Source of the DNA: Lachnospiraceae bacterium
GTDB taxonomy: Bacteria; Bacillota; Clostridia; Lachnospirales; Lachnospiraceae
Direction of reading: 5' to 3'
Assembly (NCBI GenBank): GCA_017412055.1
Contig: JAFQOW010000015.1
Location: forward strand, 77,602 to 141,601
Length of the DNA stretch: 64,000 bases
Each line of letters starts with the position of its first letter. The stretch's first letter is position 1. The position numbers and the translations under genes are program-made. The notes under the pieces were generated by a model. The model made no database searches. It worked only from the letters and a program-made list of their open reading frames with translations, and had not been told where the DNA came from. Of this stretch, positions 25,505-39,893 are shown piece by piece.

Positions 25505-25659
25505 ATATTAGTGAATTTAAATAAGGCTGTTAAGTCCAATTGGATTTGACAGCCTTTAACTTTGTTAATTGCGTATTAAAATAGTTGGTTGAGATTTTTT
25601 TAGTAAAGTGATATACTTTATTGCATATTTGGAAAATAATGAAAATGGAGGATAAGATA

Positions 25660-26892
25660 ATGGTTAAAGTTGATATAATCTCAGGATTTTTAGGTGCAGG
25701 AAAGACAACACTTATTAAGCATCTTCTTGCACATGTATATGCAGGTGAAAATGTAGTTTTAATAGAAAATGAATTTGGTGAAATAGGTATTGATGGTGGC
25801 TTCTTAAAGGAGGCTGGTATCGAAATAAGAGAGATGAATTCTGGATGTATCTGTTGCTCTTTAGTAGGTGATTTTGCTACATCTTTAAAAGAGGTTGTAT
25901 CACGCTATAATCCAGACAGAATACTTATCGAGCCATCAGGTGTAGGTAAGCTTTCTGATGTGGTTAAAGCAGTTGAGAATGTAAAAGATGAATTAGAGCT
26001 TGATATCTGTTATAAGGTAGCTGTTATAGATGTGACAAAGTGTAAGATGTATCTTAAGAATTTTGGAGAGTTCTATAAGAATCAGATAGAGAGTGCAAGC
26101 ACAGTTATTTTCTCAAGAACAGATATCGCTAAGGCAGAGAAAGTGGAGGAAGCACTTGAACTTGTAAAGTCTCTTAATAAGGAGGCAGCAGTTATCACAA
26201 CTCCTGTACAGGAATTAGATGACGAGATACTTATCAATGCATTGAAGAATGAAGGTGCAGCTAAGGACCTTATTCATGAAGAAGAGTGCTGCTGTGGTCA
26301 TCACCATGAGCATGGACATCATCATCACCATCATCACGAGGATGGAGAAGAATGTTGCTGTGGCCATCACCATGATGAAGAACATGAGCACCATCATCAC
26401 CATCATCATCACGAGGATGGAGAGGAATGTTGCTGTGGCCATCACCATGATGAAGAACATGAGCACCATCATCATAACCATCATCACGAGGATGGAGAGG
26501 AATGTTGCTGTGGCCATCACCATGATGAAGAACATGAGCACCATCATCACCACCATCATCATGAGGATGGAGAAGAATGCTGCTGTGGTCATCACCATGA
26601 GCATGGACATCATCATGCAGATGAGGTATTTACAAGCTGGGGTATGGAAACTTCTAAGGCATACTCAAAGAATAAGCTTGAAGAAATATTTACAAGATTT
26701 GATAATGAGACAAAGGGAACAATACTTCGTTCAAAGGGTATATTAAAGTCAGAGGAAGGCGATAACTGGTTATACTTTGACTATGTTCCAGGTCAGTTTG
26801 AGATAAGAGAAGGCAACAAGGATTATATCGGTAAGGTGTGTGTAATAGCAGCTGGATATACAGAGGAAGAATTAAAGGAATTTTTTGTATAA
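25660..26892 (+). CDS. COG0523 (CobW/YciC/ZigA-type) metallochaperone GTPase with an internal His/Cys-rich tandem repeat
   Basis: Walker A GFLGAGKTT, metal-binding CxCC (GCICCS), then about 4.5 copies of a 25-aa unit EDGEECCCGHHHDEEHEHHHHHHHH, then a CobW C-terminal-like domain. GGAGG SD before the ATG at 25660. Confidence 0.85.
   Translation: MVKVDIISGFLGAGKTTLIKHLLAHVYAGENVVLIENEFGEIGIDGGFLKEAGIEIREMNSGCICCSLVGDFATSLKEVVSRYNPDRILIEPSGVGKLSDVVKAVENVKDELELDICYKVAVIDVTKCKMYLKNFGEFYKNQIESASTVIFSRTDIAKAEKVEEALELVKSLNKEAAVITTPVQELDDEILINALKNEGAAKDLIHEEECCCGHHHEHGHHHHHHHEDGEECCCGHHHDEEHEHHHHHHHHEDGEECCCGHHHDEEHEHHHHNHHHEDGEECCCGHHHDEEHEHHHHHHHHEDGEECCCGHHHEHGHHHADEVFTSWGMETSKAYSKNKLEEIFTRFDNETKGTILRSKGILKSEEGDNWLYFDYVPGQFEIREGNKDYIGKVCVIAAGYTEEELKEFFV
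26281..26625 (+). repeat. tandem 75-nt repeat (about 4.5 copies) encoding the His/Cys-rich segment
   Basis: Near-identical nucleotide units (gaagaatgttgctgtggccatcaccatgatgaagaacatgagcaccatcatcaccatcatcatcacgaggatgga...). They also generate the spurious overlapping ORFs 26215-26616(-) and 26249-26746(+). Confidence 0.9.
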
Positions 26893-26951: not shown

Positions 26952-27899
26952 ATGGAACAGAAAATACAGGTATATATGATATATGGCTTTCTTGAAAGTG
27001 GAAAGACACAGTTTATAGACTTTACCACATCTCAGGATTATTTTAAGCAGGATGAACCAACACTTATTCTTCAGTGTGAAGAGGGAATGGAAGAATATGA
27101 TGTAGATAAATTAAAATCGCTAAATACAACATTGGAGACAATAGAAGAATTTGACGATTTCAATCCGGAAAATCTTGCAGCTATAGCAAAGAAGCATAAT
27201 CCAGATAGAATCATTATAGAATATAATGGAATGTGGAGTGCTAAGGATATAGAAGAAAGAATGCCAGCAAACTTCGAGATACGTCAGCAGATTACAATCG
27301 TGGATGGAGTGACATTTGAAACATATGTAACTAATATGCGATCGCTGTTTGCTGAAATGGTTAGAAATTCAGAGCTTGTAATAATGAATCGCTGTAGGGA
27401 CATAGACAAGCTTCAGGGTTATAAGAGAACAATAATGTCTCTTAATCAAGGAGTAGAAGTAGTATTCGAAGATGAAGAGGGTGAAATCGATTTGCCTATC
27501 ACAGACGAAGATTTACCATATGACCTTAAAGCAAATCCAGTGGAAATAGAGCCAGAGGATTACGGCATTTTTTACTTAGATGTATGGGAAAATCCAGATA
27601 GATACGCAGGTAAAATGTTCCATCTCCAGACAATGGTAATGAAGGAGCCAAGCTTGCCAAAGAATTACTTCGTAGCAGGAAGACCAGCCATGACATGCTG
27701 CGCAGACGATATTGTATTTATGGGATTAATCTGTAAATCAAGAGAAGCGAAAAATTTAGAGAACAAGGATACAGTAGATATGCTAGTATCTGTAGTAAAA
27801 GAATATAGAAGTGATTACAATGGAGAAGGGCCAGTACTCTATGCCGACAAATTAGTGGTAACAGCCCCAATGGAAAATCCAGTCGTAAACATGGTATAA
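26952..27899 (+). CDS. COG0523-family paralog (degenerate P-loop GTPase with CobW C-terminal-like domain)
   Basis: GFLESGKTQF P-loop variant. Lacks the CxCC motif. C-terminal PAMTCCADD. AGGTG SD. Confidence 0.65.
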   Translation: MEQKIQVYMIYGFLESGKTQFIDFTTSQDYFKQDEPTLILQCEEGMEEYDVDKLKSLNTTLETIEEFDDFNPENLAAIAKKHNPDRIIIEYNGMWSAKDIEERMPANFEIRQQITIVDGVTFETYVTNMRSLFAEMVRNSELVIMNRCRDIDKLQGYKRTIMSLNQGVEVVFEDEEGEIDLPITDEDLPYDLKANPVEIEPEDYGIFYLDVWENPDRYAGKMFHLQTMVMKEPSLPKNYFVAGRPAMTCCADDIVFMGLICKSREAKNLENKDTVDMLVSVVKEYRSDYNGEGPVLYADKLVVTAPMENPVVNMV

Positions 27900-27916
27900 A
27901 CAATGAGTCAAATAGA

Positions 27917-27964
27917 AAAGCTAGGATAAGCTTGTGCTCGCACAAAAGCTTATCCTAGCTTTTC
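27917..27964 (+). terminator. long hairpin terminator
   Basis: AAAGCTAGGATAAGCTTGTGctcgCACAAAAGCTTATCCTAGCTTTTc, a stem of about 20 bp. Confidence 0.65.
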
Positions 27965-27987
27965 TATTTGACGAATGTCCTCCATGA

Positions 27988-28124
27988 GTAACGAAGAGCG
28001 AAGCTCGAAGTTACGAATGGAGTCAACTGCGAAGCAGTTGGATTACACCATATGGTAGTAACGAAGAGCGAAGCTCGAAGTTACAAATGGAGGCAACTGC
28101 AAAGCAGTTGGTTTATACCATATG
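27988..28124 (+). repeat. two tandem 67-bp direct repeats (about 90% identical), each with an internal hairpin CAACTGCgaaGCAGTTG
   Basis: Copy 1 at 27988-28054 and copy 2 at 28058-28124. A related ~55-bp segment lies at 7543-7600. Confidence 0.8.
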
Positions 28125-28281
28125 CTATGAAAGATAATAAATTGATAAATAATAAAAAGAAGCTGGTCTTAAAATAGTAAAGAAGATTGTATTTCGACAA
28201 ACGTTGTGTTATCATTTATTTTAGATATATTCAGTGAAGATTGTTTTTAGTTGAATAATGTAGATTTTTGGAGGTTTAGTT

Positions 28282-30717
28282 ATGTCAATGGCGTGTAAAA
28301 CATGTGGTGGTACAGTAATTCGTGAAGGTAATTATTATGTATGTGAATATTGCAGTAATAAATGGGAAATTGATAGCGGAAATGATGTACATGCAGTTGA
28401 TCGTGCAAATGCATGGTCTGCTCTTCGTGATGGTGATTTTGAAAAAGCATCTGAACTTTTTGAAAATATTATTATTAAAGAAGAAAATAATTATGAAGCA
28501 TATTGGGGACGTGCGCTTGCATTTGCTGGAATAGTATATGTTACAGATATGAATGAAAATAAAAAGGTTCCTACTTGTAACAATATCACAGAAGAATCGT
28601 TTGCTAATAATAAAGATGTGCAGAAAGCAATTTCGCTTGCGCCTGTAGATATTGCTGAAGGATATAAGCAACAAGTTGGATATATTGAAAAGGTTCGTAT
28701 TGAATGGTTGGAAAAAGCCAGTAAAGAACCTGCATATGATGTATTTATTAGTTTTAAGGATAGTGATCGTGAGAATGGAATTGAACGAACACAAGATAGT
28801 GTAGATGCACAAGATCTTTATAATGCACTTGTTGATGAGGGTTATAAGGTATTCTTTAGTAGAATTAGTCTTCGTGATAAAATTTCCGAGCAGTATGAGC
28901 CTTATATTTATAATGCAATTAAAACTGCCAAAGTTATGATTGTATTTGGTGAAAAACCAGAATATTTTAGTTCTGCGTGGATTAAGAATGAGTGGAATCG
29001 TTATAAGAATAGAATTGAAAAAGGTGAAAAACATAAGAACTCTCTTGTTGTAGTCTATAAGAATATGGATCCGGGAGAGCTTCCTATAGTTCTTAAATCA
29101 CGCCAGTGCTTGAATGCAGGGGATATGACGTTTCTTTCTGATTTGAATCGTCATATTAAACGTGTTGTAGATGAATCGAAAAAGTATGTTCAACTTGAAA
29201 GAATAGAGATTACAGGTGGTCAGATTGCAAAGAAGGCAACTACCCTTAATATAAATTCTTTAGAAACTAGAGAAGTTGGTCAAGGGGCAATTGCAGAAAC
29301 TGATATTACAGAACAAGAGTCAATAAAGTTGAGTTATGTGTATTTATCAACGGGACAATGGAATGAAGCAAATGCACTTCTAGAAGATGTATTATTTAAT
29401 AATCCGACTTGTGCGGAGGCAATATGGTGTAAATTAATGGTAAAACATAAAAATTCTGAGGATTCAGATTTTGTAAAAAAGGTGAATGTATTAAGTAACG
29501 ATGATTTTATAATGATAGAAAAAGTATTAAATTGCGCTTCTAAAGAGTTCGCAGAGAAAATACTTGAGTTATTGTATAAATCTGAGGAGTATGTTACTGA
29601 TGGAGTTTATAAAAAAGTATTAGAAGTAATTTTACCATTTAAAATAAATAAACGTCAAAATAGAATAAAGGAGGCATTCTGTGGAGTTATAAATAATAGC
29701 AAATATGATAGCTTTGATTTATTATTAAATACGTTAGAGTCAGATGATGTTGAACAATACATAAAATATAATTATGACTATGCAATGAAGACCGCATCTG
29801 TAATTGAGAAAAGAGCATGTTTGAATAATATTATAAGGGTTGATGAAGGGAATTTATCGGCATTACGTTTGATTGTTAAAATAGATTTAGAATTTTCTAA
29901 TACTTTAGATGAAATGATAAAAAGTATTGAACATTTACTTAAATATGCTTCAGATACAGATAAGGAAATAGAAGAGTGCATAAATTGGTTAACTAATAAG
30001 ATAAATAGAGTTATACATTGTTTAATTGCTAAAAAAATGTTGTGTTATTATAAAAAAGATATTTCGCAACTTAAGGAACAGCTTATAATCCTAAGTTATA
30101 AGATGATTGAGAAAAAAATGTTTGCTGAAGTAGAATATTTCTTGAATTTAATTCTTTCATTTGATGCTAATAATGCTGAGGTATATTGGGCAATTTGTCT
30201 TATGAAGCTTGAAGCGACAAATGAAGAAAATATTGTAAACAAGAAAAGATTGTTAAAAGATGTAGCTGAATTTAATAGATATTTAGTATTAGTTAGTGAT
30301 GATAGAAAGAAAAAGTGTATATATATATCAAAAGAGCAAATAGAGAAACAAGAAAGAGTAAAACAACAACAATTAAATAAAATAAAAGAAGAAATACAAA
30401 CTAAAAAACAAATAAATATGCAAATGAATATAGAAATGGAAACTATTAAGCATAAAAAGTATGGTAGTAGATTTTTAATGTATCTATATGTTTTTATTAT
30501 TGTAGTAGGGATTGGGTTGAGTTGCTTAGCTTTTTCGGAAACAGAGTGTAAATCTTTTGGTTATCCAGGTTTAGCTATAATAACTATTGGCTCTTGTGGA
30601 ATATGGAGTGAATATAAAAAAACCAAGGAACAAAAAGAAAAGATAAATGAGATTCAAACAAGGATTTTAGAGGTGGAAAGAGAAATTGAGGAATTAAATA
30701 CGAAACTGACTAATTAA
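28282..30717 (+). CDS. zinc-ribbon + TIR-domain protein with a long helical/TPR-like region and a C-terminal transmembrane anchor
   Basis: N-terminus CKTCGG...CEYCSN. TIR-like block YDVFISFKDSD...LVDEGYKVFFSRISLRDK...KTAKVMIVFGEKPEYFSSAWIKNEWNRY at about nt 28735-29092. Repeated EAYWG/EAIWC/EVYWA helical motifs. Hydrophobic FLMYLYVFIIVVGIGLSCLAF near the C-terminus. GGAGG SD. Confidence 0.75.
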   Translation: MSMACKTCGGTVIREGNYYVCEYCSNKWEIDSGNDVHAVDRANAWSALRDGDFEKASELFENIIIKEENNYEAYWGRALAFAGIVYVTDMNENKKVPTCNNITEESFANNKDVQKAISLAPVDIAEGYKQQVGYIEKVRIEWLEKASKEPAYDVFISFKDSDRENGIERTQDSVDAQDLYNALVDEGYKVFFSRISLRDKISEQYEPYIYNAIKTAKVMIVFGEKPEYFSSAWIKNEWNRYKNRIEKGEKHKNSLVVVYKNMDPGELPIVLKSRQCLNAGDMTFLSDLNRHIKRVVDESKKYVQLERIEITGGQIAKKATTLNINSLETREVGQGAIAETDITEQESIKLSYVYLSTGQWNEANALLEDVLFNNPTCAEAIWCKLMVKHKNSEDSDFVKKVNVLSNDDFIMIEKVLNCASKEFAEKILELLYKSEEYVTDGVYKKVLEVILPFKINKRQNRIKEAFCGVINNSKYDSFDLLLNTLESDDVEQYIKYNYDYAMKTASVIEKRACLNNIIRVDEGNLSALRLIVKIDLEFSNTLDEMIKSIEHLLKYASDTDKEIEECINWLTNKINRVIHCLIAKKMLCYYKKDISQLKEQLIILSYKMIEKKMFAEVEYFLNLILSFDANNAEVYWAICLMKLEATNEENIVNKKRLLKDVAEFNRYLVLVSDDRKKKCIYISKEQIEKQERVKQQQLNKIKEEIQTKKQINMQMNIEMETIKHKKYGSRFLMYLYVFIIVVGIGLSCLAFSETECKSFGYPGLAIITIGSCGIWSEYKKTKEQKEKINEIQTRILEVEREIEELNTKLTN

Positions 30718-30731
30718 CTTGTAACGTGGGA

Positions 30732-30762
30732 AAGATGGTTAGCGATAGCCATCTTTTTAGTT
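30732..30762 (+). terminator. rho-independent terminator after the first TIR gene
   Basis: AGATGGttagcgatagCCATCTTTTTAG. Confidence 0.55.
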
Positions 30763-30814
30763 TGAATTGATAAGAAAATAGTTTGATTGTTATAATTGTC
30801 GTAAATTGTTGAAA

Positions 30815-30850
30815 ATACATTGTATATATGTTAGAATACAATTGTATTCT
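30815..30850 (+). promoter_or_regulatory. tandem palindromic operator-like sites (ATACA-N1-2-TGTAT x2) upstream of the RHH gene
   Basis: AATACATTGTAT at 30814-30825. Perfect 18-bp palindrome AGAATACAATTGTATTCT at 30833-30850. Centres about 21 bp apart. Confidence 0.55.
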
Positions 30851-30912
30851 TTGATGCCATGGTAGGCGTATATTATTATGTGAATATTAAGTAATTTGAT
30901 AGGAGTTGTTAT

Positions 30913-31104
30913 ATGGACGAAGAAAAGAAATTAGTCATTTTACCACTAAAATATAGTGGTGAGACAACGGTAATATCTATGCGAATGCCGAAAGATATGT
31001 TGGCAGATATAGATAAAATAGCTGAAAAAACAGGAAGAACGCGTAATGAAATACTGATGTTGAGTATGGAATTTGCTATAGAACACATAACTACGAAAGA
31101 ATAA
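30913..31104 (+). CDS. ribbon-helix-helix (CopG/Arc-type) DNA-binding protein
   Basis: TVISMRMPKDMLADIDKIAEKTGRTRNEILMLSMEFAIEH fits a beta-strand-helix-helix pattern. 63 aa. Confidence 0.65.
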   Translation: MDEEKKLVILPLKYSGETTVISMRMPKDMLADIDKIAEKTGRTRNEILMLSMEFAIEHITTKE

Positions 31105-31118
31105 GGAGGATTTAGGTT

Positions 31119-32882
31119 ATGGCTAAATTTGCGATTGCATGCCCTGTATGTGGAAAATATGCGGAGGCTAAAACAGGTTTTTTTGCGAGAAAGAAAATTG
31201 ATTGTTCATGTGGAAATGTAATTAATGTTAAGCTGGATAAGCTTGCGTCAAGAGAGTGTCCGCATTGTGGTAATCAAGTTGCATATGATCAGAGTCAAGG
31301 TGAACATGCATTGTGTCCAGTGTGTCATCAAGGCATAAATACTATGGCATTGCAGCAGAAGATAGAAGAGTTTTCATGTTCTCAATGTGGAGTAAGATTG
31401 ATAACCTCTAAAAGTGCGGCAACATATACATGTCCAGTATGTGATTGTGTTAATGATATTCAGGAACGTCTTGTGTCTGAAAATATTAAGAAAGATGGTC
31501 TTGCTAGTATTATTAAGTATGAGGGAAATAACGATACGTTTATATGGAAACATCCAATTGAAGATTTTAATTATGGTTCACAGCTTATTGTACATGAGAG
31601 CCAGGAAGCAATATTTTTCAAGGATGGACAGGCATTAGATATATTTGGACCTGGTAGATATACTCTTGAGACGCAGCAATTACCACTTATAGAGAAAGCT
31701 TATAAGTTGCCAACAGATACAGAAGGTACATTTCATTCGGAAGTTTACTTCATTAACAAGACAGTACAAATGGCAGTTAAATGGGGGACAGCTGAGAAAG
31801 TAAGATTCATAGATCCGCTTACAGGTGTTCCATTGGAACTTGGTGTGTCAGGTGAAATGAATATTCAGGTGTGTAATTCAAAGAAATTATTGGTAAAGCT
31901 TGTAGGTACAATGAGTGGATTATCTTGGGATGAAGAAGCAGAAATGACTAAGTCATTGAAATCGTCTTTTAGACCAATGATAGCAAATGCGGTGAAGACT
32001 AATCTACCATCTGTAATTAAAAATGAAGCAATTGATCTTCTTGAAATTGATGAAAAATTAGATATTATTTCAGAATGTCTTAAGGAAAAGGTGCAAGCAG
32101 GATTTGAAGAATATGGTTTGACTGTGCCGCAGTTTTATGTAACTACTGTAGTTCTTCCAGAAGATGATCCTAATTTTAGGAGAATTCGTGAATTACATAC
32201 AATAACACTTCAGACAAGAATGTTACAAGCTGAAGCTACTATAAAGACAGCACAGGCTCAAAGTGAAACTATGTATAGAACTGCTCAGGAGCAGAGCAAG
32301 GCGGCTATTGAAGTAGCACAACGAGAAGCAGAGTTACAGAGGCAGATAACAGAAACAGAAATTGCAAAAAGAGAGGCTGAAAGAAAAATTATTGCTGCAC
32401 AAGCTGAAGCACAAGCACAGAGAATGGCTGGTTTGACTGAAGCTGAAATTATGCAGGCAAAGGGGTATTCTCAAAAGGATGTACTTCAGGCAGATGTGCA
32501 GAAAGCATATGCAGAAGGTATTGGTAATATGGGACCATCTATAAGTGCAGGTGGAGGAAGTAATATAGTTGGAGATATGCTTGGACTTGGGGTTGGAATG
32601 GCAGCAGCAAATGCGGTTGCACCACAGATAGGTAATATGATACAAGGCTTTACTAATCCTATGAATCAGCCACAGATACAGCCACAGATGCAACCACAGA
32701 TGACAGTTGGAGGTTCATGGGATTGTAGTTGTGGACAGAAAGGAATAGTGGGTAATTTCTGTAGTAACTGCGGAGCAAAGAAGCCACAACCTGCGATGCC
32801 TGAAATGTGGAATTGTACATGTGGACAGGTAGGTATAACAGGAAATTTCTGTAGTAATTGTGGTAAGAAGAGAGGTGAATAG
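31119..32882 (+). CDS. SPFH/band-7-like protein (COG4260-like) with three N-terminal and two C-terminal zinc ribbons and a coiled-coil
   Basis: N-terminal CxxC pairs x6. Central block WKHPIEDFNYGSQLIVHESQEAIFFKDGQALDIFGPGRYTL resembles the SPFH fold. E/A/Q-rich coiled coil. C-terminus CSCGQKGIVGNFCSNCG...CTCGQVGITGNFCSNCG. AAGGAGG SD. Confidence 0.55.
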   Translation: MAKFAIACPVCGKYAEAKTGFFARKKIDCSCGNVINVKLDKLASRECPHCGNQVAYDQSQGEHALCPVCHQGINTMALQQKIEEFSCSQCGVRLITSKSAATYTCPVCDCVNDIQERLVSENIKKDGLASIIKYEGNNDTFIWKHPIEDFNYGSQLIVHESQEAIFFKDGQALDIFGPGRYTLETQQLPLIEKAYKLPTDTEGTFHSEVYFINKTVQMAVKWGTAEKVRFIDPLTGVPLELGVSGEMNIQVCNSKKLLVKLVGTMSGLSWDEEAEMTKSLKSSFRPMIANAVKTNLPSVIKNEAIDLLEIDEKLDIISECLKEKVQAGFEEYGLTVPQFYVTTVVLPEDDPNFRRIRELHTITLQTRMLQAEATIKTAQAQSETMYRTAQEQSKAAIEVAQREAELQRQITETEIAKREAERKIIAAQAEAQAQRMAGLTEAEIMQAKGYSQKDVLQADVQKAYAEGIGNMGPSISAGGGSNIVGDMLGLGVGMAAANAVAPQIGNMIQGFTNPMNQPQIQPQMQPQMTVGGSWDCSCGQKGIVGNFCSNCGAKKPQPAMPEMWNCTCGQVGITGNFCSNCGKKRGE

Positions 32883-32885
32883 TCT

Positions 32886-33572
32886 ATGCATAAAAACAAA
32901 GTAAGAGGATGTATAACATTAGCAGTAATAGCAATTGTATTAAGTGTAATAGCGTTTGTTGCACCATTTTTAATGAATGCTACATTTTGGATAGCATATT
33001 TGTTTTCAGTTATAGCTATAGCATTTCAGATATATATATTTAAGATATCTTTTTCAGAAACAGAAGATGTAAAGAGTAAATTTTATGGTTTTCCTATCGC
33101 TCAGATAGGCGTAATATATCTTGTGGCGCAACTTGTAATAAGTATAGTGGAAATGATTCTTGCTACATTGATTCCAAGCTGGGTTGCAGTTGTGATTAAC
33201 ATAATTGTAACAGCGGCAGCGGTTCTTGGTTGCATTGCCGCAGATACTGTGAGAGACGAGATAGTAAAGCAGGATGATAAATTAAAAAAGAATGTCACAA
33301 ATATGAGAAGCATGCAGTTATTGTCGGCATCTATCGCAGGACAATGTACAAGTGAAATAAAATGTGAATTAGAGAAATTAGCAGAAGAGTTCAAGTATAG
33401 TGATATAGTGTCATCAGAGGCAACTGTTGAATTGGAAAATGAGATAAAACAACAATTAGATGAACTTCAAAGTTCAGTAATAGAAGGAGATATTGAATCA
33501 GCGAAGGTTTTGTGCGCTGGAATTCATGCAAAACTTAACGAGCGTAACAGATTGTGCGCACTAAATAAATAG
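32886..33572 (+). CDS. integral membrane protein (about 4 TM) with a C-terminal coiled-coil
   Basis: Hydrophobic helices, then ELEKLAEEFKYS...LQSSVIEGDIESAK. Lies 4 nt after the previous stop. Confidence 0.5.
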   Translation: MHKNKVRGCITLAVIAIVLSVIAFVAPFLMNATFWIAYLFSVIAIAFQIYIFKISFSETEDVKSKFYGFPIAQIGVIYLVAQLVISIVEMILATLIPSWVAVVINIIVTAAAVLGCIAADTVRDEIVKQDDKLKKNVTNMRSMQLLSASIAGQCTSEIKCELEKLAEEFKYSDIVSSEATVELENEIKQQLDELQSSVIEGDIESAKVLCAGIHAKLNERNRLCALNK

Positions 33573-33599
33573 ATATAAGTAGCTTAGGAGGAATATACA

Positions 33600-36014
33600 A
33601 TGGCAGTAATAAAATGTAAAATGTGTGGTGGTCAACTTAAAATTATTGAAAATTCAAGTGTTTGTGAATGTGAATACTGTGGTACAAAACAGACAATACC
33701 AACAGTAAAGGATGAAAATATACAGTCTTTATTTAATCGTGCCAATCATCTTCGTATGAAGGCAGAGTTTGATAAGGCTTCAGAAATATATGAAAAGATA
33801 ATATCAACTAATGATAAAGAAGCAGAAGCATACTGGGGACTTATATTATGTAAATATGGCATAGAATATGTAGAAGATCCAACAACTTACAAGCGTATTC
33901 CAACTTGTCACAGAGCATCTTATGAAGCTGTCGTTGTAGATGAAGATTATAAATTAGCACTTCAATATGCTGATATGTTTCAGAAGGAAATATATGAAAG
34001 AGAAGCAAAAGCAATTGATGATATTCAAAAAGGTATCGTGCAGATAGCGCAGAAGGAAGAACCTTATGATGTGTTCATATGTTATAAAGAGACTGACGAA
34101 GATGGTAAACGTACACAGGATAGCGTAATAGCTAATGATATTTATTATCAGTTAACACAGGAAGGATATAAGGTATTTTATGCGGCTATAACTCTTGAGG
34201 GCAAGTTAGGACAGGAGTATGAACCATACATATTTTCAGCGCTTAATTCTGCAAAAGTTATGTTGACAATAGGAACAAAAACAGAATATTTTAATGCAGT
34301 GTGGGTAAAAAATGAGTGGAGTCGATTCCTTAAAATATTGAAAAATGATCGTTCTCGTATGCTTATTCCTTGTTATAGAGATATGGATGCATATGATTTA
34401 CCAGAAGAATTTGCACATCTTCAGGCTCAAGATATGAGTAAAATAGGATTTATTAATGATCTTGTAAGGGGAATAAAGAAGATAGTAGGTTTGGAGGAAA
34501 AAGCAGTATCTGAATCACCAGTTGTACAACAGACAGTAGTTGCAATGTCTGGTAATGTAGAAGCGTTGTTAAAAAGAGGAAATTTAGCACTTGAGGATAT
34601 GGAATGGGAAAGAGCAGATGGTTTCTTTGAGGAAGTGCTTAATCACGATGCAGAAAATGCATATGCTTATTTAGGAAAAATGTTGGCAGAGTTGAAGTTG
34701 TCAAGTGCTTCTAAAATATCAACAATTTCACATATTTCATTTACTGAAAATAAGGATTTTATTAAGGCGTTAAGATTTGCTGATGATAAATTGAAAGAAG
34801 AACTAAATGGTTATGTAAAAAAAAGAATGGAGGAAGAAGAAAAGAGAGTATTGAATGAAAAAAGGGTTATGGATGAAATAGAATGGCTTTTGAGTGAAAA
34901 AGAGACAAAAAAAGAAATAGATAGTTTAGTTGCGTGTGGTGATGATTATAGTATAGGCCTGAAAAAAGATGGGACAGTAGTGGCGACAGGAGATAATGAT
35001 AGTAGAAAACGTGAAGTAGAGACATGGCGAGATATAGTAGCGGTTGCGTTTGGTTTTCGTCATAGTATAGGCCTAAAAAAAGATGGGACAGTAGTGGCGA
35101 CAGGAGATAATAAGTATGGTCAATGCAAAATAGAGACATGGCGAGATATAGTAGCGGTTGCGTGTGGTGATGATCATAGTATAGGCCTGAAAAAAGATGG
35201 GACAGTAGTAGCGACAGGAGATAATGGAGAAAGTCAATGCGAAGTAGAGATATGGCGAGATATAGTAGCGGTTGCGTGTGGTGGTTATCATAGTATAGGT
35301 TTAAAAAAAGATGGGACAGTAATGGCAACAGGAGAACATGTGTATGGTCAATGCAAAGTAGAGACATGGCGAGATGTAGTAGCGGTTGCGTGTGGTAATG
35401 CTCATAGTATAGGCCTAAAAAAAGATGGGACAGTAGTGGCAACAGGATATAATTATAATAGTGAATGTGAAGTAGAGACATGGCGAGATATAGCAGCGGT
35501 TGCGTGTGGTCGTAAACATAGTATAGGCCTAAAAAAAAGTGGTACAGTAGTGGCGACAGGAGATAATAAGTATGGTCAATGCAAAATAGAGACATGGCGA
35601 GATATAGTAGCGGTTGCGTGTGGTGATGATCATAGTATAGGCTTAAAAAAAGATGGGACAGTAGTGGCTACAGGAAATAATAAGTATGGTCAATGCAAAG
35701 TAGAGACATGGAAATTATTTGATAATGTTTATAGTTACTTAGAAGAAAAGGATATAGAATGTAAAGCAGAAGAGGAAAAACGTAAAGTAGAAGAGGAAAA
35801 ACGTAAAGCAGAAGAGGAAAAACGTAAAGCAGAAGAGGAAAAACGTAAAGCGGAAGAGGAAAAACGTAAAGCAGAAGAGGAAAAACGTAAAGTAGAAGAG
35901 GAAAAACAAAAATTTGAATGGCGACAATTAGGATGTTGTCAGCATTGTGGTGGCATGCTTAAAGGCTTTTTTATAAAAAAATGTGTATCATGTTGTAGAG
36001 AAAAAGATTATTAA
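33600..36014 (+). CDS. zinc-ribbon + TIR-domain protein fused to an 8-repeat RCC1-like beta-propeller, an E/K-rich single-alpha-helix repeat and a C-terminal zinc ribbon
   Basis: N-terminus CKMCGG...CECEYCG plus EAYWGLIL motif (paralog of 28282). TIR block YDVFICYKETDEDGKRTQDSV...GYKVFYAAITLEGK...SAKVMLTIGTKTEYFNAVWVKNEWSRF at about nt 34065-34410. Eight copies of VACGDDHSIGLKKDGTVVATGDNxxGQCKxETWRDIVA. (EEKRKAEE)x7. CCQHCGG...CVSCC. Confidence 0.8.
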   Translation: MAVIKCKMCGGQLKIIENSSVCECEYCGTKQTIPTVKDENIQSLFNRANHLRMKAEFDKASEIYEKIISTNDKEAEAYWGLILCKYGIEYVEDPTTYKRIPTCHRASYEAVVVDEDYKLALQYADMFQKEIYEREAKAIDDIQKGIVQIAQKEEPYDVFICYKETDEDGKRTQDSVIANDIYYQLTQEGYKVFYAAITLEGKLGQEYEPYIFSALNSAKVMLTIGTKTEYFNAVWVKNEWSRFLKILKNDRSRMLIPCYRDMDAYDLPEEFAHLQAQDMSKIGFINDLVRGIKKIVGLEEKAVSESPVVQQTVVAMSGNVEALLKRGNLALEDMEWERADGFFEEVLNHDAENAYAYLGKMLAELKLSSASKISTISHISFTENKDFIKALRFADDKLKEELNGYVKKRMEEEEKRVLNEKRVMDEIEWLLSEKETKKEIDSLVACGDDYSIGLKKDGTVVATGDNDSRKREVETWRDIVAVAFGFRHSIGLKKDGTVVATGDNKYGQCKIETWRDIVAVACGDDHSIGLKKDGTVVATGDNGESQCEVEIWRDIVAVACGGYHSIGLKKDGTVMATGEHVYGQCKVETWRDVVAVACGNAHSIGLKKDGTVVATGYNYNSECEVETWRDIAAVACGRKHSIGLKKSGTVVATGDNKYGQCKIETWRDIVAVACGDDHSIGLKKDGTVVATGNNKYGQCKVETWKLFDNVYSYLEEKDIECKAEEEKRKVEEEKRKAEEEKRKAEEEKRKAEEEKRKAEEEKRKVEEEKQKFEWRQLGCCQHCGGMLKGFFIKKCVSCCREKDY
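34920..35700 (+). repeat. eight tandem ~153-nt repeats, near-identical at nucleotide level, encoding the RCC1-like blades
   Basis: Repeating ggcctgaaaaaagatgggacagtagtggcgacaggagataat...gagacatggcgagatatagtagcggttgcgtgtggt units. Source of the spurious minus-strand ORF 34867-35595. Confidence 0.9.
35760..35925 (+). repeat. seven tandem 24-nt repeats (gaagaggaaaaacgtaaagcagaa) encoding EEKRKAEE
   Basis: Perfect or near-perfect copies. Source of the spurious minus-strand ORF 35739-35927. Confidence 0.9.
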
Positions 36015-36036
36015 ATTTAGGAAGGGATTTTTACAT

Positions 36037-36972
36037 ATGAGTCAAGTAAAAGAACAAAAGTATCTACAAGTGTTATTGTTAGGGAATGGTATTAATCAAT
36101 TAAATGGCGGTAAGTCATGGAATGAATTTTTGCGAGATATAACCACAAAACAAGAGATTTTAGATGGTATTATCCAGTTGGAAAAACTGCAGTGTCCAGA
36201 ACCATTAAAAGCAATTTTGGTAACAGAAGATCATATTGATGTTGCTATGAAAAATTACTGTAAAAAGATTGCTTTTGAGAAGCAAGCACCACAAATATGT
36301 GAAATATATAAAACTATATTAACTATGGGATTTGACGATATCCTTACTACAAATTACACATATGAATTAGAAGTGGCAGCGGCTACACCAAAAGAAATAA
36401 ATGAATCTAAAGTAAGAGCAATGGCGCGTAATACATTAGGACGCAGGGTTGAGAATAAGTATCTTTTGCATACATATAATTGCTTGAAAGTTCTTGAGTG
36501 TGAAAATAGAGTATGGCATATTCATGGAGAAGCGAGAAAACCAGATAGTACAGTTTTAGGACATTATTACTATGGGAATTTACTTTTTAAAATAAAAAAT
36601 TTTTTGGAAAGAAGAAAATATGCATATATTACAGAAAGTGAATCGTGGATTGATTCGTTCATAATGGGTGATGTTTATATTCTTGGATTTGGATTTGCTT
36701 TTTCTGAAATGGATTTATGGTGGCTTTTAAATCGTAAAGCAAGAGAAAAAAGTGATGTGGGCAAGGTGTATTTTTATGAAGCAAAGCCAGATGGTTTTAA
36801 TGAGAAGCAAGAAATATTACGTATGATGAAATGTGCATCAGATGGAGAACCACTGGTGGAAATCATTGATTGTGGATTTGATGAAAAAGAATTGAAAACA
36901 TTTAATGATAAATATGAAGCTTTTTATAAAGCTGCGATTGAAGATATTTATACTAAAATGAATAAAGGATAG
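36037..36972 (+). CDS. SIR2_2-family (sirtuin-like, predicted NAD+-consuming) protein
   Basis: SIR2_2 motif series LLLGNGINQ (GAG-type Rossmann), DDILTTNYT (TTNYD motif), WHIHGEA (HG motif), YILGFGFAFSEMD (GYS..D motif). Start chosen at MSQVKEQ (36037), 23 nt after the TIR-RCC1 stop. The tracked ORF starts at 35983 inside the upstream gene. Confidence 0.75.
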   Translation: MSQVKEQKYLQVLLLGNGINQLNGGKSWNEFLRDITTKQEILDGIIQLEKLQCPEPLKAILVTEDHIDVAMKNYCKKIAFEKQAPQICEIYKTILTMGFDDILTTNYTYELEVAAATPKEINESKVRAMARNTLGRRVENKYLLHTYNCLKVLECENRVWHIHGEARKPDSTVLGHYYYGNLLFKIKNFLERRKYAYITESESWIDSFIMGDVYILGFGFAFSEMDLWWLLNRKAREKSDVGKVYFYEAKPDGFNEKQEILRMMKCASDGEPLVEIIDCGFDEKELKTFNDKYEAFYKAAIEDIYTKMNKG

Positions 36973-37051
36973 CTATATAGTGTTTTGGAATTAAATGTAT
37001 AAAGTATTAAAAAACACTTTACAAATCCGTTAATCGTGTTAAAATATATAT

Positions 37052-37300
37052 GTGTTTTAAACATAATTTAAAAACTGAAATTAAAACGTTGACGAGGACA
37101 GTAGATTAGCAAAAAGGAATCAAAGAGAGAAGCAGGTGGTGTGATTGCTTCATTCCCGGCTACATTGAAAACCACCTCTGAGTGACTCTAATAAAGTCCG
37201 GTGATTACGTTATAATCATAAGAGTGGTAGCTTTTTTGCTACAATTTGGGTGGAACCGCGATAATATCGTCCCTTGCAGATTTATATCTGTAGGGGATTT
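37052..37300 (+). ncRNA. T-box riboswitch leader (Thr specifier ACC) with terminator/antiterminator
   Basis: Promoter TTTACA-N16-TAAAAT at 37018-37045. AGAGA stem-I start. Specifier-like GAAAACCAC. T-box consensus AATTTGGGTGGAACCGCG at 37243-37260. Terminator CCCTTGCAGATttatATCTGTAGGGGATTTTT. Confidence 0.8.
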
Positions 37301-37378: not shown

Positions 37379-37879
37379 ATGGCTTTTGAACTAGCAAGAA
37401 TATCAAACGATGAACAACTTAATATTTTAGCAGGTGTTGCAAATGAAGTCTGGCATGAATTCTTTCCCTGTATTTTATCTGATGAGCAAATTGACTATAT
37501 GGTTGATAAGTTTCAATCTTACCCTGCCATGAAAAAACAGATGGAAGATGGTTATGAATATTATTTTATAAAGGATAATGATGAAATCTGTGGATATATG
37601 GGTATACATGAAGAAACAGAGGATAATAAAATGTTCCTTAGTAAGCTATATTTAAAGAAGGCACATAGAGGAAAAGGTTATGCTGGTCAAACTCTTAAAG
37701 AACTCTTTAAAATGAGTAGGGAGAGAGGGCTTAATATGGTATGGCTAACGGTTAATAAGCATAATGAACATACTATTGAAGTATACGAGCATATGGGCTT
37801 TGCAAAAGCTCGAACTCAGGTGGCTGATATTGGCAATGGCTTTGTAATGGATGATTACATTATGGAGAAGGTGCTTTAA
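37379..37879 (+). CDS. GNAT-family N-acetyltransferase
   Basis: Acetyl-CoA binding motif region (KAHRGKGYAGQTLKELF). 166 aa. AAAGGAG SD. Confidence 0.85.
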   Translation: MAFELARISNDEQLNILAGVANEVWHEFFPCILSDEQIDYMVDKFQSYPAMKKQMEDGYEYYFIKDNDEICGYMGIHEETEDNKMFLSKLYLKKAHRGKGYAGQTLKELFKMSRERGLNMVWLTVNKHNEHTIEVYEHMGFAKARTQVADIGNGFVMDDYIMEKVL

Positions 37880-37934: not shown

Positions 37935-39893
37935 ATGAAGATTACATTAAAAGACGGTTCAGTAAAAGAATACGCACAGGCAATGTCTGTTATAGATGTT
38001 GCAAATGACATTAGCGAAGGTTTGGGTAGAGCAGCTTGTGCTGGTGAGGTAAATGGAGAAGTTGTAGATTTAAGAACAGTTATAGAAGAGGACTGCAATT
38101 TAAGCATTCTTACATTTAATGATGAGGCAGGTAAGGCTGCATACAGACATACATGTTCACATGTATTGGCAGAGGCTGTTAAGAGACTTTATCCAGAAGC
38201 AAAGCTTGCGATTGGACCATCAATAGACACAGGATTTTATTATGATTTCGAGCATGCTCCATTTTCAAGAGAAGACCTTGATAAAATTGAGGCAGAGATG
38301 AAGAAGGTTATTAAGGAAAATGCTAAAATCGAAAGATTCACAATGCCAAGAGCAGAGGCTATTAAGTTTATGGAGGAGAAGGGCGAGCTATATAAGGTAG
38401 AGCTTATCCGTGATCTTCCAGAGGATGCGGTTATTTCATTCTATAGTCAGGGTGATTTCGTGGACCTTTGTGCAGGACCACACCTTATGAAGACAGGTGC
38501 TATTAAGGCATTTAAGCTTATTTCATCATCTGGTGCATACTGGAGAGGTAAGTCGGAGAATCAGATGCTTGCTAGAATCTACGGTACAGCATTTGCTAAG
38601 AAGGATGAGCTTAATGCATACTTAGAGCATCTTGAGGATATTAAGAAGAGAGACCATAATAAGCTTGGTAGAGAGATGGAAATCTTTACAACAGTAGATG
38701 TAATAGGACAAGGCCTTCCACTTCTTATGCCAAATGGTGTAATTATGCTTCAGGAGCTTCAAAGATGGATTGAGGACGAGGAGACAAAGAGAGGATATGT
38801 TAGAACAAAGACACCTCTTATGGCTAAGTCTGATTTATATAAGATTTCTGGACATTGGGATCACTATAAGGATGGTATGTTCGTTCTTGGTGATGAAGAG
38901 AAGGATGATGAAGTATTTGCCCTTCGTCCTATGACATGTCCATTCCAGTATTATGTATACAAGAATAGTCAGAAGAGCTACAGAGACCTTCCATTGAGAT
39001 ATGGTGAGACATCTACACTTTTCAGAAATGAAGATTCAGGTGAGATGCATGGTCTTACAAGAGTTCGTCAGTTTACAATTTCAGAGGGACACTTAATCGT
39101 TCGCCCAGACCAGATGGTTGAGGAGTTTAAGGGATGTCTCGCACTTGCTAAGTATTGCTTAGAGACACTTGGTGTTCAGAGCGATGTAACATATCATCTT
39201 TCTAAGTGGGACCCAGATAATAGAGCAAAGTATATCGGCGAGCCAGAGGTATGGGAAGAGACAGAGCAGCATATTAGAGATATCTTAAATGAGCTTGAAA
39301 TTCCATTTACAGAGGATGTAGGAGAGGCTGCATTCTATGGACCAAAGGTAGATATCAATGCTAAGAATGTATACGGCAAGGAAGATACAATGATTACAAT
39401 CCAGTGGGATCCATTACTTGCTGAACAGTTTGATATGTACTACATTGACCAGAATGGTGAGAAGGTTAGACCATACATTATCCATAGAACATCTATGGGA
39501 TGTTATGAGAGAACACTTGCTTGGCTTATCGAGCATTACGCAGGACTTTTCCCAACATGGTTATGTCCAGAACAGGTGAGAGTTCTTCCTATTTCGGAGA
39601 AGTATGCTGATTATGCTCACAAGGTAGAAGAAGAGCTTAAAGCAAACGGTATCCGTTGCTCAATGGATAACCGTTCCGAAAAGATTGGTTTCAAGATTAG
39701 AGATGCAAGACTTAAGAGAGTTCCATATATCCTTGTAGTAGGACAGAAGGAAGAGGAAGAAGGAAAGGTATCTGTAAGAAGCCGTTATCTTGGGGATGAA
39801 GGTCAGAAGGAGCTTTCTGTATTCATCGACGAAATCTGCAAGGAGATTCGTACAAAGGAAATCAGAGAGATTAAAGTAGAAGAAAACCAGTAG
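37935..39893 (+). CDS. thrS: threonine--tRNA ligase
   Basis: N-terminal TGS domain, editing domain, class II core (motif 2 FRNEDSGEMHGLTRVRQFT, motif 3) and anticodon-binding domain. Confidence 0.95.
   Translation: MKITLKDGSVKEYAQAMSVIDVANDISEGLGRAACAGEVNGEVVDLRTVIEEDCNLSILTFNDEAGKAAYRHTCSHVLAEAVKRLYPEAKLAIGPSIDTGFYYDFEHAPFSREDLDKIEAEMKKVIKENAKIERFTMPRAEAIKFMEEKGELYKVELIRDLPEDAVISFYSQGDFVDLCAGPHLMKTGAIKAFKLISSSGAYWRGKSENQMLARIYGTAFAKKDELNAYLEHLEDIKKRDHNKLGREMEIFTTVDVIGQGLPLLMPNGVIMLQELQRWIEDEETKRGYVRTKTPLMAKSDLYKISGHWDHYKDGMFVLGDEEKDDEVFALRPMTCPFQYYVYKNSQKSYRDLPLRYGETSTLFRNEDSGEMHGLTRVRQFTISEGHLIVRPDQMVEEFKGCLALAKYCLETLGVQSDVTYHLSKWDPDNRAKYIGEPEVWEETEQHIRDILNELEIPFTEDVGEAAFYGPKVDINAKNVYGKEDTMITIQWDPLLAEQFDMYYIDQNGEKVRPYIIHRTSMGCYERTLAWLIEHYAGLFPTWLCPEQVRVLPISEKYADYAHKVEEELKANGIRCSMDNRSEKIGFKIRDARLKRVPYILVVGQKEEEEGKVSVRSRYLGDEGQKELSVFIDEICKEIRTKEIREIKVEENQ

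Follow-up and report, generated by a model that had tools for sequence, protein, structure and literature searches.

The window analysed here, a 64,000-nucleotide stretch of a Lachnospiraceae bacterium genome (contig JAFQOW010000015.1), contains six consecutive genes, here g1 to g6, that encode two TIR proteins, a ribbon-helix-helix (RHH) protein, an SPFH/Band_7_1 protein, a protein with four transmembrane (TM) helices and a SIR2-like protein. Together they represent one copy of a mobile gene system that is widespread among gut and rumen anaerobes and apparently uncharacterised so far. Its conserved core is made up of the RHH gene, one to three copies of a gene with a zinc ribbon-TPR-TIR arrangement, the SPFH gene and the gene for the four-TM (4-TM) protein. 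The open reading frame (ORF) list of the window confirms all six frames, which lie on the forward strand between 28282 and 36972, as a first-pass annotation of this DNA had described. The genes and their control elements are as follows.

28282-30717, + strand: g1, 811 residues; zinc ribbon, TPR-like repeat, TIR domain, C-terminal anchor
30729-30758, + strand: terminator-like hairpin after g1
30767-30849, + strand: promoter/operator region of g2 to g6
30913-31104, + strand: g2, 63 residues; RHH protein (CopG/Arc-type)
31119-32882, + strand: g3, 587 residues; zinc ribbons and SPFH/Band_7_1 domain
32886-33572, + strand: g4, 228 residues; four TM helices, no Pfam match
33600-36014, + strand: g5, 804 residues; zinc ribbon, TPR, TIR domain, RCC1-like propeller
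36037-36972 (from the ATG at 36037), + strand: g6, 311 residues; predicted SIR2 fold of the AbiH family

The NCBI annotation of the source metagenome-assembled genome (MAG) names these genes only as TIR domain-containing, SPFH domain-containing or hypothetical protein. The block had been called visibly AT-richer than its surroundings, which holds in direction and is modest in size: its GC content is 0.335 compared with 0.353 in the remaining window, a slight drop, and the difference is clearer at third codon positions, where the island genes have values of 0.20-0.25 compared with 0.28-0.34 in the flanking housekeeping genes.

Core proteins and operon control

Both TIR proteins match Pfam TIR_2 well above its cut-off of 28 bits, g1 with 37.4 bits (E = 4e-9, with TPR also matched) and g5 with 44.9 bits (E = 1.9e-11), and they are paralogous across residues 1-430, with 33% identity (E = 1e-59), in agreement with the original description of two paralogous zinc ribbon-TIR proteins. 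The TIR domain occupies residues 150-300 in g5 and approximately the same residues in g1, and contains a conserved glutamate, E237 in the sequence WIKNEW of g1 and E239 in WVKNEW of g5. This glutamate at the catalytic position, expected from the first reading of the sequence, is invariant within W(V/I)KNEW in all 22 homologues aligned, and a profile of the family matches Toll-like receptor and bacterial TIR structures. C-terminal to the TIR domain the two proteins differ. In g1 a long helical, TPR-like region leads to a hydrophobic anchor at residues 727-778, identified by hydropathy, and then to a short coiled-coil tail, which bears out the suggestion that one of the pair is anchored in the membrane. 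In g5 the corresponding part is an RCC1 propeller at about residues 440-710, matched by Pfam RCC1_2 in seven stretches (E = 2e-67) and encoded by a DNA repeat at 34929-35711 with 6.9 copies of a 114-nucleotide unit, which gives seven blades rather than the eight originally counted. No TM helix or hydrophobic segment was found in g5 by hydropathy, and it thus represents a soluble subtype. The tail of g5 contains a low-complexity coil of EEKRKAE units, encoded by seven copies of a 21-nucleotide tandem repeat (35761-35907), and a cluster of cysteines (CCQHCGG...CVSCC, within 35761-36014), so that together with the N-terminal zinc ribbon the protein is bracketed by zinc-ribbon-like motifs at both ends.

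The family to which these proteins belong is large, with at least 3950 clusters at 90% identity that are named only as TIR or TPR proteins. Its N-terminal 300 residues are highly conserved and comprise the zinc ribbon (1-35), a TPR-like repeat (∼40-80), a helical linker and the TIR domain (150-300). The C-terminal parts vary, and tandem TIR paralogues with identical N termini and different C termini are found at three related loci (L011, L062 and L002). Among 92 non-redundant C-terminal regions we identified RCC1 in 38, TPR in ∼30, DUF6273 in 17, and LRR_5 and Lipocalin_3 in 4 each. Most members also have one strongly hydrophobic helix C-terminal to the TIR module, which in 39 of 57 TIR-RCC1 proteins is placed between the TIR domain and the propeller. 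The 15 residues preceding this helix contain a mean of 5.2 Lys and Arg residues, compared with 1.65 in those following it, and the count is higher before the helix in 60 of 63 proteins and higher after it in none. Under the positive-inside rule this charge bias would make the zinc ribbon-TPR-TIR module cytoplasmic and leave the RCC1, LRR or DUF6273 repeats on the outer side of the membrane. Most of the homologous TIR proteins are thus predicted to be single-pass membrane receptors with the TIR domain inside and the repeats outside; examples of this TM type are found at L008:4860-7970 and L062:6572-9940 and in L113, L135 and L140.

The SPFH/Band_7_1 domain of g3 spans residues 149-349 (Pfam E = 1.4e-34) and is accompanied by five zinc ribbons, the number first described, which are defined by Cys pairs, three N-terminal and two C-terminal with the pattern W-x-C-x-C-G; the Cys pairs are invariant in the family alignment (A3). 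C-terminal to the SPFH domain is an Ala/Glu/Gln-rich helical region, and at about residues 485-510 (32570-32650) there is a Gly-rich hydrophobic segment, G-D-x4-G-L-G-V-x-L-G-A-M-G, in which G485, D486, G491 and A496 are invariant in the same alignment. This segment resembles a glycine zipper, a membrane-interacting motif. No TM helix is predicted in g3, and hydropathy analysis gave no hydrophobic 19-mer. With a Band_7_1 domain, C-terminal zinc ribbons and no TM helix, g3 therefore has the COG4260-type, YdjI-like pattern.

The gene for the 4-TM protein is always positioned directly downstream of the SPFH gene. The four TM helices attributed to g4 are predicted in our analysis too, and in its structural model, which has a predicted local distance difference test score (pLDDT) of 81, they are joined to a cytoplasmic four-helix domain. 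The family numbers 2035 representatives at 50%-identity clustering, all of about 230 residues, with the invariant motifs YSD(P)VS and ERNR. No Pfam family matches g4, and a Foldseek comparison of the model with the PDB returned no significant fold match.

The remaining core gene, g2, encodes a small protein that matches Pfam RHH_1 with 22.8 bits (cut-off 20.5) and a PHROG family of CopG-like repressors. The genes from g2 to g6 are separated by only 3-27 nucleotides and so probably form a single operon, whereas g1 is followed by the hairpin at 30729-30758 and is probably a separate transcription unit. Two promoter-like sites precede g2. The better one, TTGATA-18-TATAAT with an extended TG (30767-30796), has 11 of 12 matches; the other, TTGAAA-17-TAGAAT (30809-30837), contains an inverted repeat, ATACA-T-TGTAT (30815-30825), in its spacer, and its -10 box is overlapped by a perfect 16-mer palindrome, GAATACAATTGTATTC (30834-30849). 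Palindromes upstream of the RHH gene had been reported from the start, and their position at the g2 promoter is what one would expect if the protein encoded next repressed its own operon. From the sequence, g2 is likely to be the autorepressor of the g2-g6 operon, with the palindromes as putative operators. Similar TACA-N2-4-TGTA palindromes are present upstream of the RHH genes in L008, L017, L093 and L151. As a general operator of these RHH proteins the motif ATACA(0-2)TGTAT was rejected, being present in 4 of 48 upstream regions only, and the looser TACA-N2-4-TGTA form is confined to a few related loci.

The conserved core and the variable slot

Conservation of the cluster was assessed in two sets of related loci (160 in total, designated by L numbers), one comprising the 80 best metagenomic loci anchored on the SPFH gene and the other 80 species-representative genomes anchored on g6. 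In the SPFH-anchored set, zinc ribbon-TIR genes lie beside the SPFH gene in 60 of 80 loci, the 4-TM gene is found in 68 and an RHH gene in 46, usually as the first gene of the cluster. In most of the 20 loci that lack a TIR gene the contig breaks off near the SPFH gene, and the same is true of most of the exceptions for the 4-TM gene. The recurrent layout is RHH, one to three zinc ribbon-TPR-TIR genes, a variable gene X, SPFH and 4-TM. The full gene set extends to two Chloroflexi MAGs (L008, Flexilinea, and L017), where the genes stand in another order and are arranged as two divergent units. SIR2-like genes of the g6 type, by comparison, are present at 6 of these 80 loci. The expectation that TIR, SIR2 and SPFH genes would be conserved together is therefore correct for TIR with SPFH and fails for SIR2. 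The SIR2-like gene is an optional member, one of a number of modules that replace one another in a slot of variable content, and the conserved system is thus RHH, TIR, SPFH and 4-TM.

The slot, which directly follows a TIR gene, is occupied by at least five gene families as well as singletons. Its occupants are HNH_2, DUF2971 (PADLOC candidate PDC-S31), HipA-like (PDC-M03A) and HEPN (pEK499_p136) proteins, a different SIR2, zinc ribbon-TPR-TM proteins that lack a TIR domain, an insertion sequence (IS) transposase (L160) and unknowns.

From the side of g6, 17 of the 80 genomes contain one or more core genes (TIR, SPFH or 4-TM), and in 12 of these 17 the g6 homologue lies directly downstream of a TIR gene, mostly across a short intergenic gap. 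In the other 63 the neighbours include a Suv3 helicase, GGT, an ABC transporter, a histidine kinase and giant secreted proteins with LRR_5, Big_2 and Flg_new repeats. The TIR-linked copies do not form one clade, being scattered among unlinked copies in a distance tree. The idea that unlinked g6 copies are preceded by large genes for cryptic TIR-like sensors was rejected, as these genes encode Suv3 helicases, GGT, a histidine kinase, an ABC transporter and surface proteins with signal peptides. These surface proteins, of 900-3000 residues with LRR_5, Big_2, Flg_new or DUF285 repeats, often adjoin unlinked g6 homologues (L005, L044, L051, L059, L060, L069 and L083), and DUF6273 and LRR_5 recur as C-terminal domains of the TIR proteins; there may be a shared hotspot or a functional link between g6 homologues and such repeats.

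The g6 family itself comprises about 1900 clusters at 90% identity, all of about 310 residues. In the window, g6 starts 22 nucleotides past the end of g5. It matches Pfam AbiH (PF14253) with 32.4 bits (cut-off 30.9) over part of the profile (positions 114-245 of 260), whereas SIR2_2 reaches 21.4 bits and stays below its cut-off of 24.5; many homologues hold precomputed PF14253 and/or PF13289 matches. A profile of the family searched against PDB sequences found only KomC, with an E value of about 0.1, and a fold search was therefore needed to place it. The AlphaFold2 (AF2) model of g6 (pLDDT 86, predicted TM-score 0.88) has as its best Foldseek matches the SIR2 NADase domains of DSR2 and ThsA (E from 1e-8 to 1e-6, TM-score about 0.55), at a sequence identity of 15-18%. 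The active-site Asn and His of those enzymes are conserved, with invariant motifs GNG, TTNY(T/S)YE (N106) and WHIHGE (H163), and both N106 and H163 are present in 29 of 29 aligned sequences (A1). In contrast to DSR2 and ThsA, g6 has neither the large sensor region nor the SLOG region by which these enzymes are controlled: neither Pfam nor the AF2 model gave a second domain (SLOG or Macro), and the SIR2 fold fills all 311 residues. Among PADLOC models only a weak match to LmuA was found for g6. The first-pass annotation was hence right about a short SIR2 protein that lacks a SLOG or Macro sensor, while of its SIR2_2 assignment the fold and the catalytic-type residues are supported and the family name gives way to AbiH. 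Taken with the AbiH match, the model makes g6 a SIR2-fold member of the AbiH family that stands alone, and a putative NADase.

A strain-variable insertion site

Contigs that carry an identical flanking CobW-like protein of 315 residues fall into two groups according to their cargo at this site. In L171 to L173 the TIR-SPFH island is present; in L174 and L175 its place is taken by DUF3990 with a helix-turn-helix (HTH) gene, an MNT/HEPN pair and small unknown genes, after which the same T-box-GNAT-thrS unit follows. The site in the window is therefore a strain-variable hotspot with defence or toxin cargo in its alternative alleles, and the block is indeed inserted as an island, as had been proposed. 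The flanking features and the alternative cargo are listed here.

27904-28126, + strand: left junction element; hairpin and direct repeats, with an Rfam Clostridiales-1 RNA match
37080-37277, + strand: T-box leader (Rfam T-box, 109 bits), the right boundary, outside the system
37379-37879: GNAT gene, 166-residue acetyltransferase
37935-39893: thrS
L174:1354-5363 and L175:1684-3603: alternative cargo; DUF3990 and HTH_3, Pol-beta nucleotidyltransferase/HEPN (MNT-HEPN), small unknowns

The island also varies in sequence between strains, since in L171 the TIR-RCC1 protein has 769 residues instead of 804. In the same variant (L171:14168-18958) the SPFH gene is split into ORFs of 272 and 312 residues, probably by a frameshift. 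A short form of the system at L183:3200-16779 (GCA_964261755, on a 2.25-Mb contig) consists of SPFH (412 residues), 4-TM (232 residues), HTH_17, a TIR protein of 498 residues and a TPR/DUF6273 protein, and its surroundings include an AbiH gene, an integrase fragment, a reverse transcriptase, transposases, TnpV, Cys_rich_VLP and ALP_N; this copy is probably carried on an integrative mobile element.

On the left, the hairpin and the two direct repeats initially reported are both present, the hairpin with a 30-bp stem (27907-27972) and the repeats at 27987-28056 and 28057-28126, with a repeat length of 70 nucleotides instead of 67. Rfam Clostridiales-1 RNA (RF01699) matches 27904-28047 with 61 bits (cut-off 48). 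As a companion of the system this RNA was sought in ten other loci and not found, and the strains with other cargo at the same site lack the element, as do six further loci of the system. On the right, the T-box assigned to thrS is a Thr T-box that is followed first by the 166-residue GNAT gene and only then by thrS, and from this order both genes are apparently under its control. Upstream of the island, a COG0523/CobW-type GTPase gene (25621-26892) contains an internal His/Cys-rich repeat expansion (HHHEDGEECCCGHHHDEEHEHHHH, several copies), which is presumably metal-binding, and is followed by another CobW-like gene (26952-27899), whose product has a DUF1980_C domain.

Proposed function and relation to known systems

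We propose as the most likely explanation, at what we judge to be about an even chance, that the cluster is a TIR-based, membrane-associated defence of the abortive-infection type, directed against phages or other invaders and equipped with plug-in effectors. The variable C-terminal repeats of the TIR proteins would act as sensors, and the 4-TM protein would tether an SPFH oligomer to the membrane, where the oligomer would cluster or restrain the TIR proteins. On a trigger the TIR domains would assemble and cleave NAD+, leading either to its depletion or to an ADP-ribose-derived signal, and the slot gene would supply an effector that reinforces growth arrest, a SIR2-like NADase here and HNH, HEPN, HipA-like or DUF2971 proteins elsewhere. 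The RHH protein would bind the promoter palindromes and keep the toxic operon at a low level. The defence context is suggested by the slot genes, which are typical defence or toxin domains (HNH_2, HEPN, DUF2971, HipA-like and SIR2), by the strain-variable hotspot with its MNT/HEPN and DUF3990 alternatives and by the mobile-element surroundings of L183. The domain identities, the invariant catalytic-type residues of the TIR and SIR2 proteins, the linkage of the core genes, the tandem TIR paralogues with their diverse C-terminal domains and the frequent place of the SIR2-like gene behind a TIR gene also speak for this explanation. The membrane step has a precedent in Bacillus subtilis, where partner proteins in the membrane recruit the soluble Band_7_1 protein YdjI/SamI (PMC8581546; bioRxiv 10.64898/2026.02.06.704340; PMC11237479).

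Several observations weigh against a defence role of this kind. No component was matched by the PADLOC defence models, and in a scan of 2.9 million viral contigs the TIR module was found on only 2, which gives no indication of phage carriage. The slot proteins contain no recognisable nucleotide-sensor domain (SLOG, Macro, SAVED or CARF), and the slot genes could have been picked up independently, as hitch-hikers, instead of serving as effectors. In addition, the SPFH/Band_7_1 relatives in Bacillus serve envelope-stress physiology and not immunity.

The first interpretation of this DNA took the TIR and SIR2 genes as the defining pair of a Thoeris-like system. Under a two-step scheme of this type the TIR proteins, as analogues of ThsB, would make an NAD-derived signal that activates the SIR2-like protein, as an analogue of ThsA, to deplete NAD+. 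The likeness to type I Thoeris is real in that TIR and SIR2-fold genes are adjacent, separated by 22 nucleotides, several TIR paralogues occur per locus as in Thoeris loci with multiple ThsB proteins, the g6 model best matches the NADase domains of ThsA and DSR2, and the 17 of 80 g6-family loci with a core gene lie far above random placement. However, g6 consists of the SIR2 fold alone and lacks a SLOG, Macro or any other domain for ligand sensing. Of the 80 SPFH-anchored loci, 74 do not have its gene, unrelated genes can take its place in the same slot, and the TIR-linked SIR2 copies are polyphyletic. The TIR proteins also differ from ThsB, being multidomain proteins of 600-1600 residues with zinc ribbons, TPRs and repeat or TM parts, and SPFH, 4-TM and RHH genes belong to the core. 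Neither g1 nor g5 has a match in PADLOC 2.0, ThsA and ThsB included, and an NCBIfam 20.0 scan of the proteins gave only the Thoeris family ThcB4, with 18-21 bits against a cut-off of 220. Given that the sensor domain and the ThsA/ThsB matches are missing and that g6 is facultative, the cluster is not Thoeris, TIR and SIR2 are not supported as its defining pair, and signalling of this kind to g6 is in our view unlikely. A possibility that we consider plausible, although less probable than not, is that the locus consists of independent units, with g6 a self-sufficient, AbiH-type single-gene abortive-infection system lodged at a hotspot in or beside a TIR-SPFH operon whose core works without it. 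AbiH of Lactococcus is such a single-gene system and is predicted to be sirtuin-like (PMC13064643), and g6 resembles it in its stand-alone form of about 300 residues, its sirtuin-like fold, its place in variable or mobile DNA and a Pfam score just above the cut-off. The 63 of 80 g6 relatives that lack any TIR, SPFH or 4-TM neighbour, the scatter of linked copies in the tree and the IS transposase in the slot of L160 are consistent with this explanation, which would account likewise for the HNH, HEPN or HipA genes in the slots of other loci. On the other hand, the AbiH match is partial, g6 is probably operonic with the TIR-RCC1 gene, with no promoter-like site of at least 10 of 12 matches between g5 and g6, the 12 of 17 linked g6-family genes that lie directly downstream of a TIR gene are on the same strand, and in most loci the slot is situated within the operon, between TIR and SPFH, which favours co-expression.

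Two other readings start from the membrane. The SPFH protein belongs with the YdjI family, and the closest studied analogue of g3 and g4 is the PspA-YdjGHI (SamGHI) system of B. subtilis, in which a soluble Band_7_1 protein with a C-terminal zinc ribbon is encoded beside the proteins that recruit it to the membrane, YdjG (zinc ribbons and a TM helix) and YdjH. The cluster might accordingly be a module for envelope-stress or environmental signalling, with the TIR proteins as generators of second messengers under surface receptors. The shared zinc-ribbon and TM partners, the predicted transmembrane receptors with large ectodomains among most homologous TIR proteins, and the presence of an RHH regulator fit this explanation. 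Conversely, neither PspA nor TPM gave a Pfam match in the window genes or in the called genes of annotated related loci, g4 belongs to another, unannotated family (YdjH, a TPM-domain protein, being unrelated to g4 as far as the absence of a Pfam match allows this to be tested), g3 has extra N-terminal zinc ribbons, and TIR genes and toxin-type genes are coupled to the set. Because the locus is strain-variable and mobile rather than part of a core gene set, and its slot is filled by toxin- and nuclease-type genes, we regard a role in envelope stress or environmental signalling as very unlikely. The other reading, which we hold as rather improbable, is a receptor-type TIR immune or signalling system in which extracellular RCC1, LRR or DUF6273 sensors, cytoplasmic zinc ribbon-TPR-TIR modules and the SPFH and 4-TM proteins as organisers would relay an outside signal, for example phage adsorption or a change at the envelope, to NAD+-cleaving TIR domains and plug-in toxic effectors. 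In architecture this would be analogous to Toll-like receptors and plant TIR-NLRs, which also join a repeat sensor to a TIR domain; in most homologues of the family described here the predicted layout is ectodomain, TM helix and cytoplasmic TIR. The polarity here is inverted, with the TIR domain N-terminal and an N-in/C-out arrangement, the repeats are of the RCC1, LRR_5 or DUF6273 type, NB-ARC and death-domain partners are missing, and g5 of the window is soluble.

The combination of RHH, TIR, SPFH and 4-TM genes is widespread and apparently undescribed, as the first-pass annotation had supposed of the gene set in the window: neither PADLOC 2.0 nor NCBIfam 20.0 nor the searchable literature contains it. 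Scans of the six proteins with PHROGs and PADLOC gave nothing informative beyond RHH and RCC1, and a literature search for SPFH or Band-7 proteins linked with TIR domains or anti-phage defence, subscription literature being outside its scope, found nothing relevant. The nearest theme is that of the proposed Thoeris types V-XI and TIR-effector pairs (Yirmiya et al. 2025, bioRxiv 10.64898/2025.12.03.692087), in which TIR proteins are paired with many alternative effectors, including TM proteins; those TIR proteins, in contrast to the ones described here, are mostly small single-domain proteins. The text of that paper mentions neither SPFH, Band-7, zinc ribbon nor RCC1, and motifs of the zinc ribbon-TPR-TIR family are absent from the portion of its Table S1 that was compared. 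The novelty of the system is thus an unusual SPFH/4-TM core and a cargo slot within the known theme of TIR-based defence.

TIR-based immunity is common to bacteria, plants and animals, and in the system described here TIR proteins are consistently coupled to a putative SPFH scaffold, a 4-TM protein and an exchangeable slot for candidate effectors, of which the variable slot offers a ready catalogue. If the ectodomain-TM-TIR topology is correct, the system would provide a tractable bacterial model for outside-in TIR signalling and a first immune role for SPFH proteins, and if the receptor-type reading holds, it would be functionally analogous to Toll-like receptors organised in rafts and the first defence system with an SPFH scaffold at its centre. 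Gut and rumen Clostridia contain abundant members of the large TIR and 4-TM families, and the defensome of human and animal microbiota could therefore include this system as a common, overlooked part.

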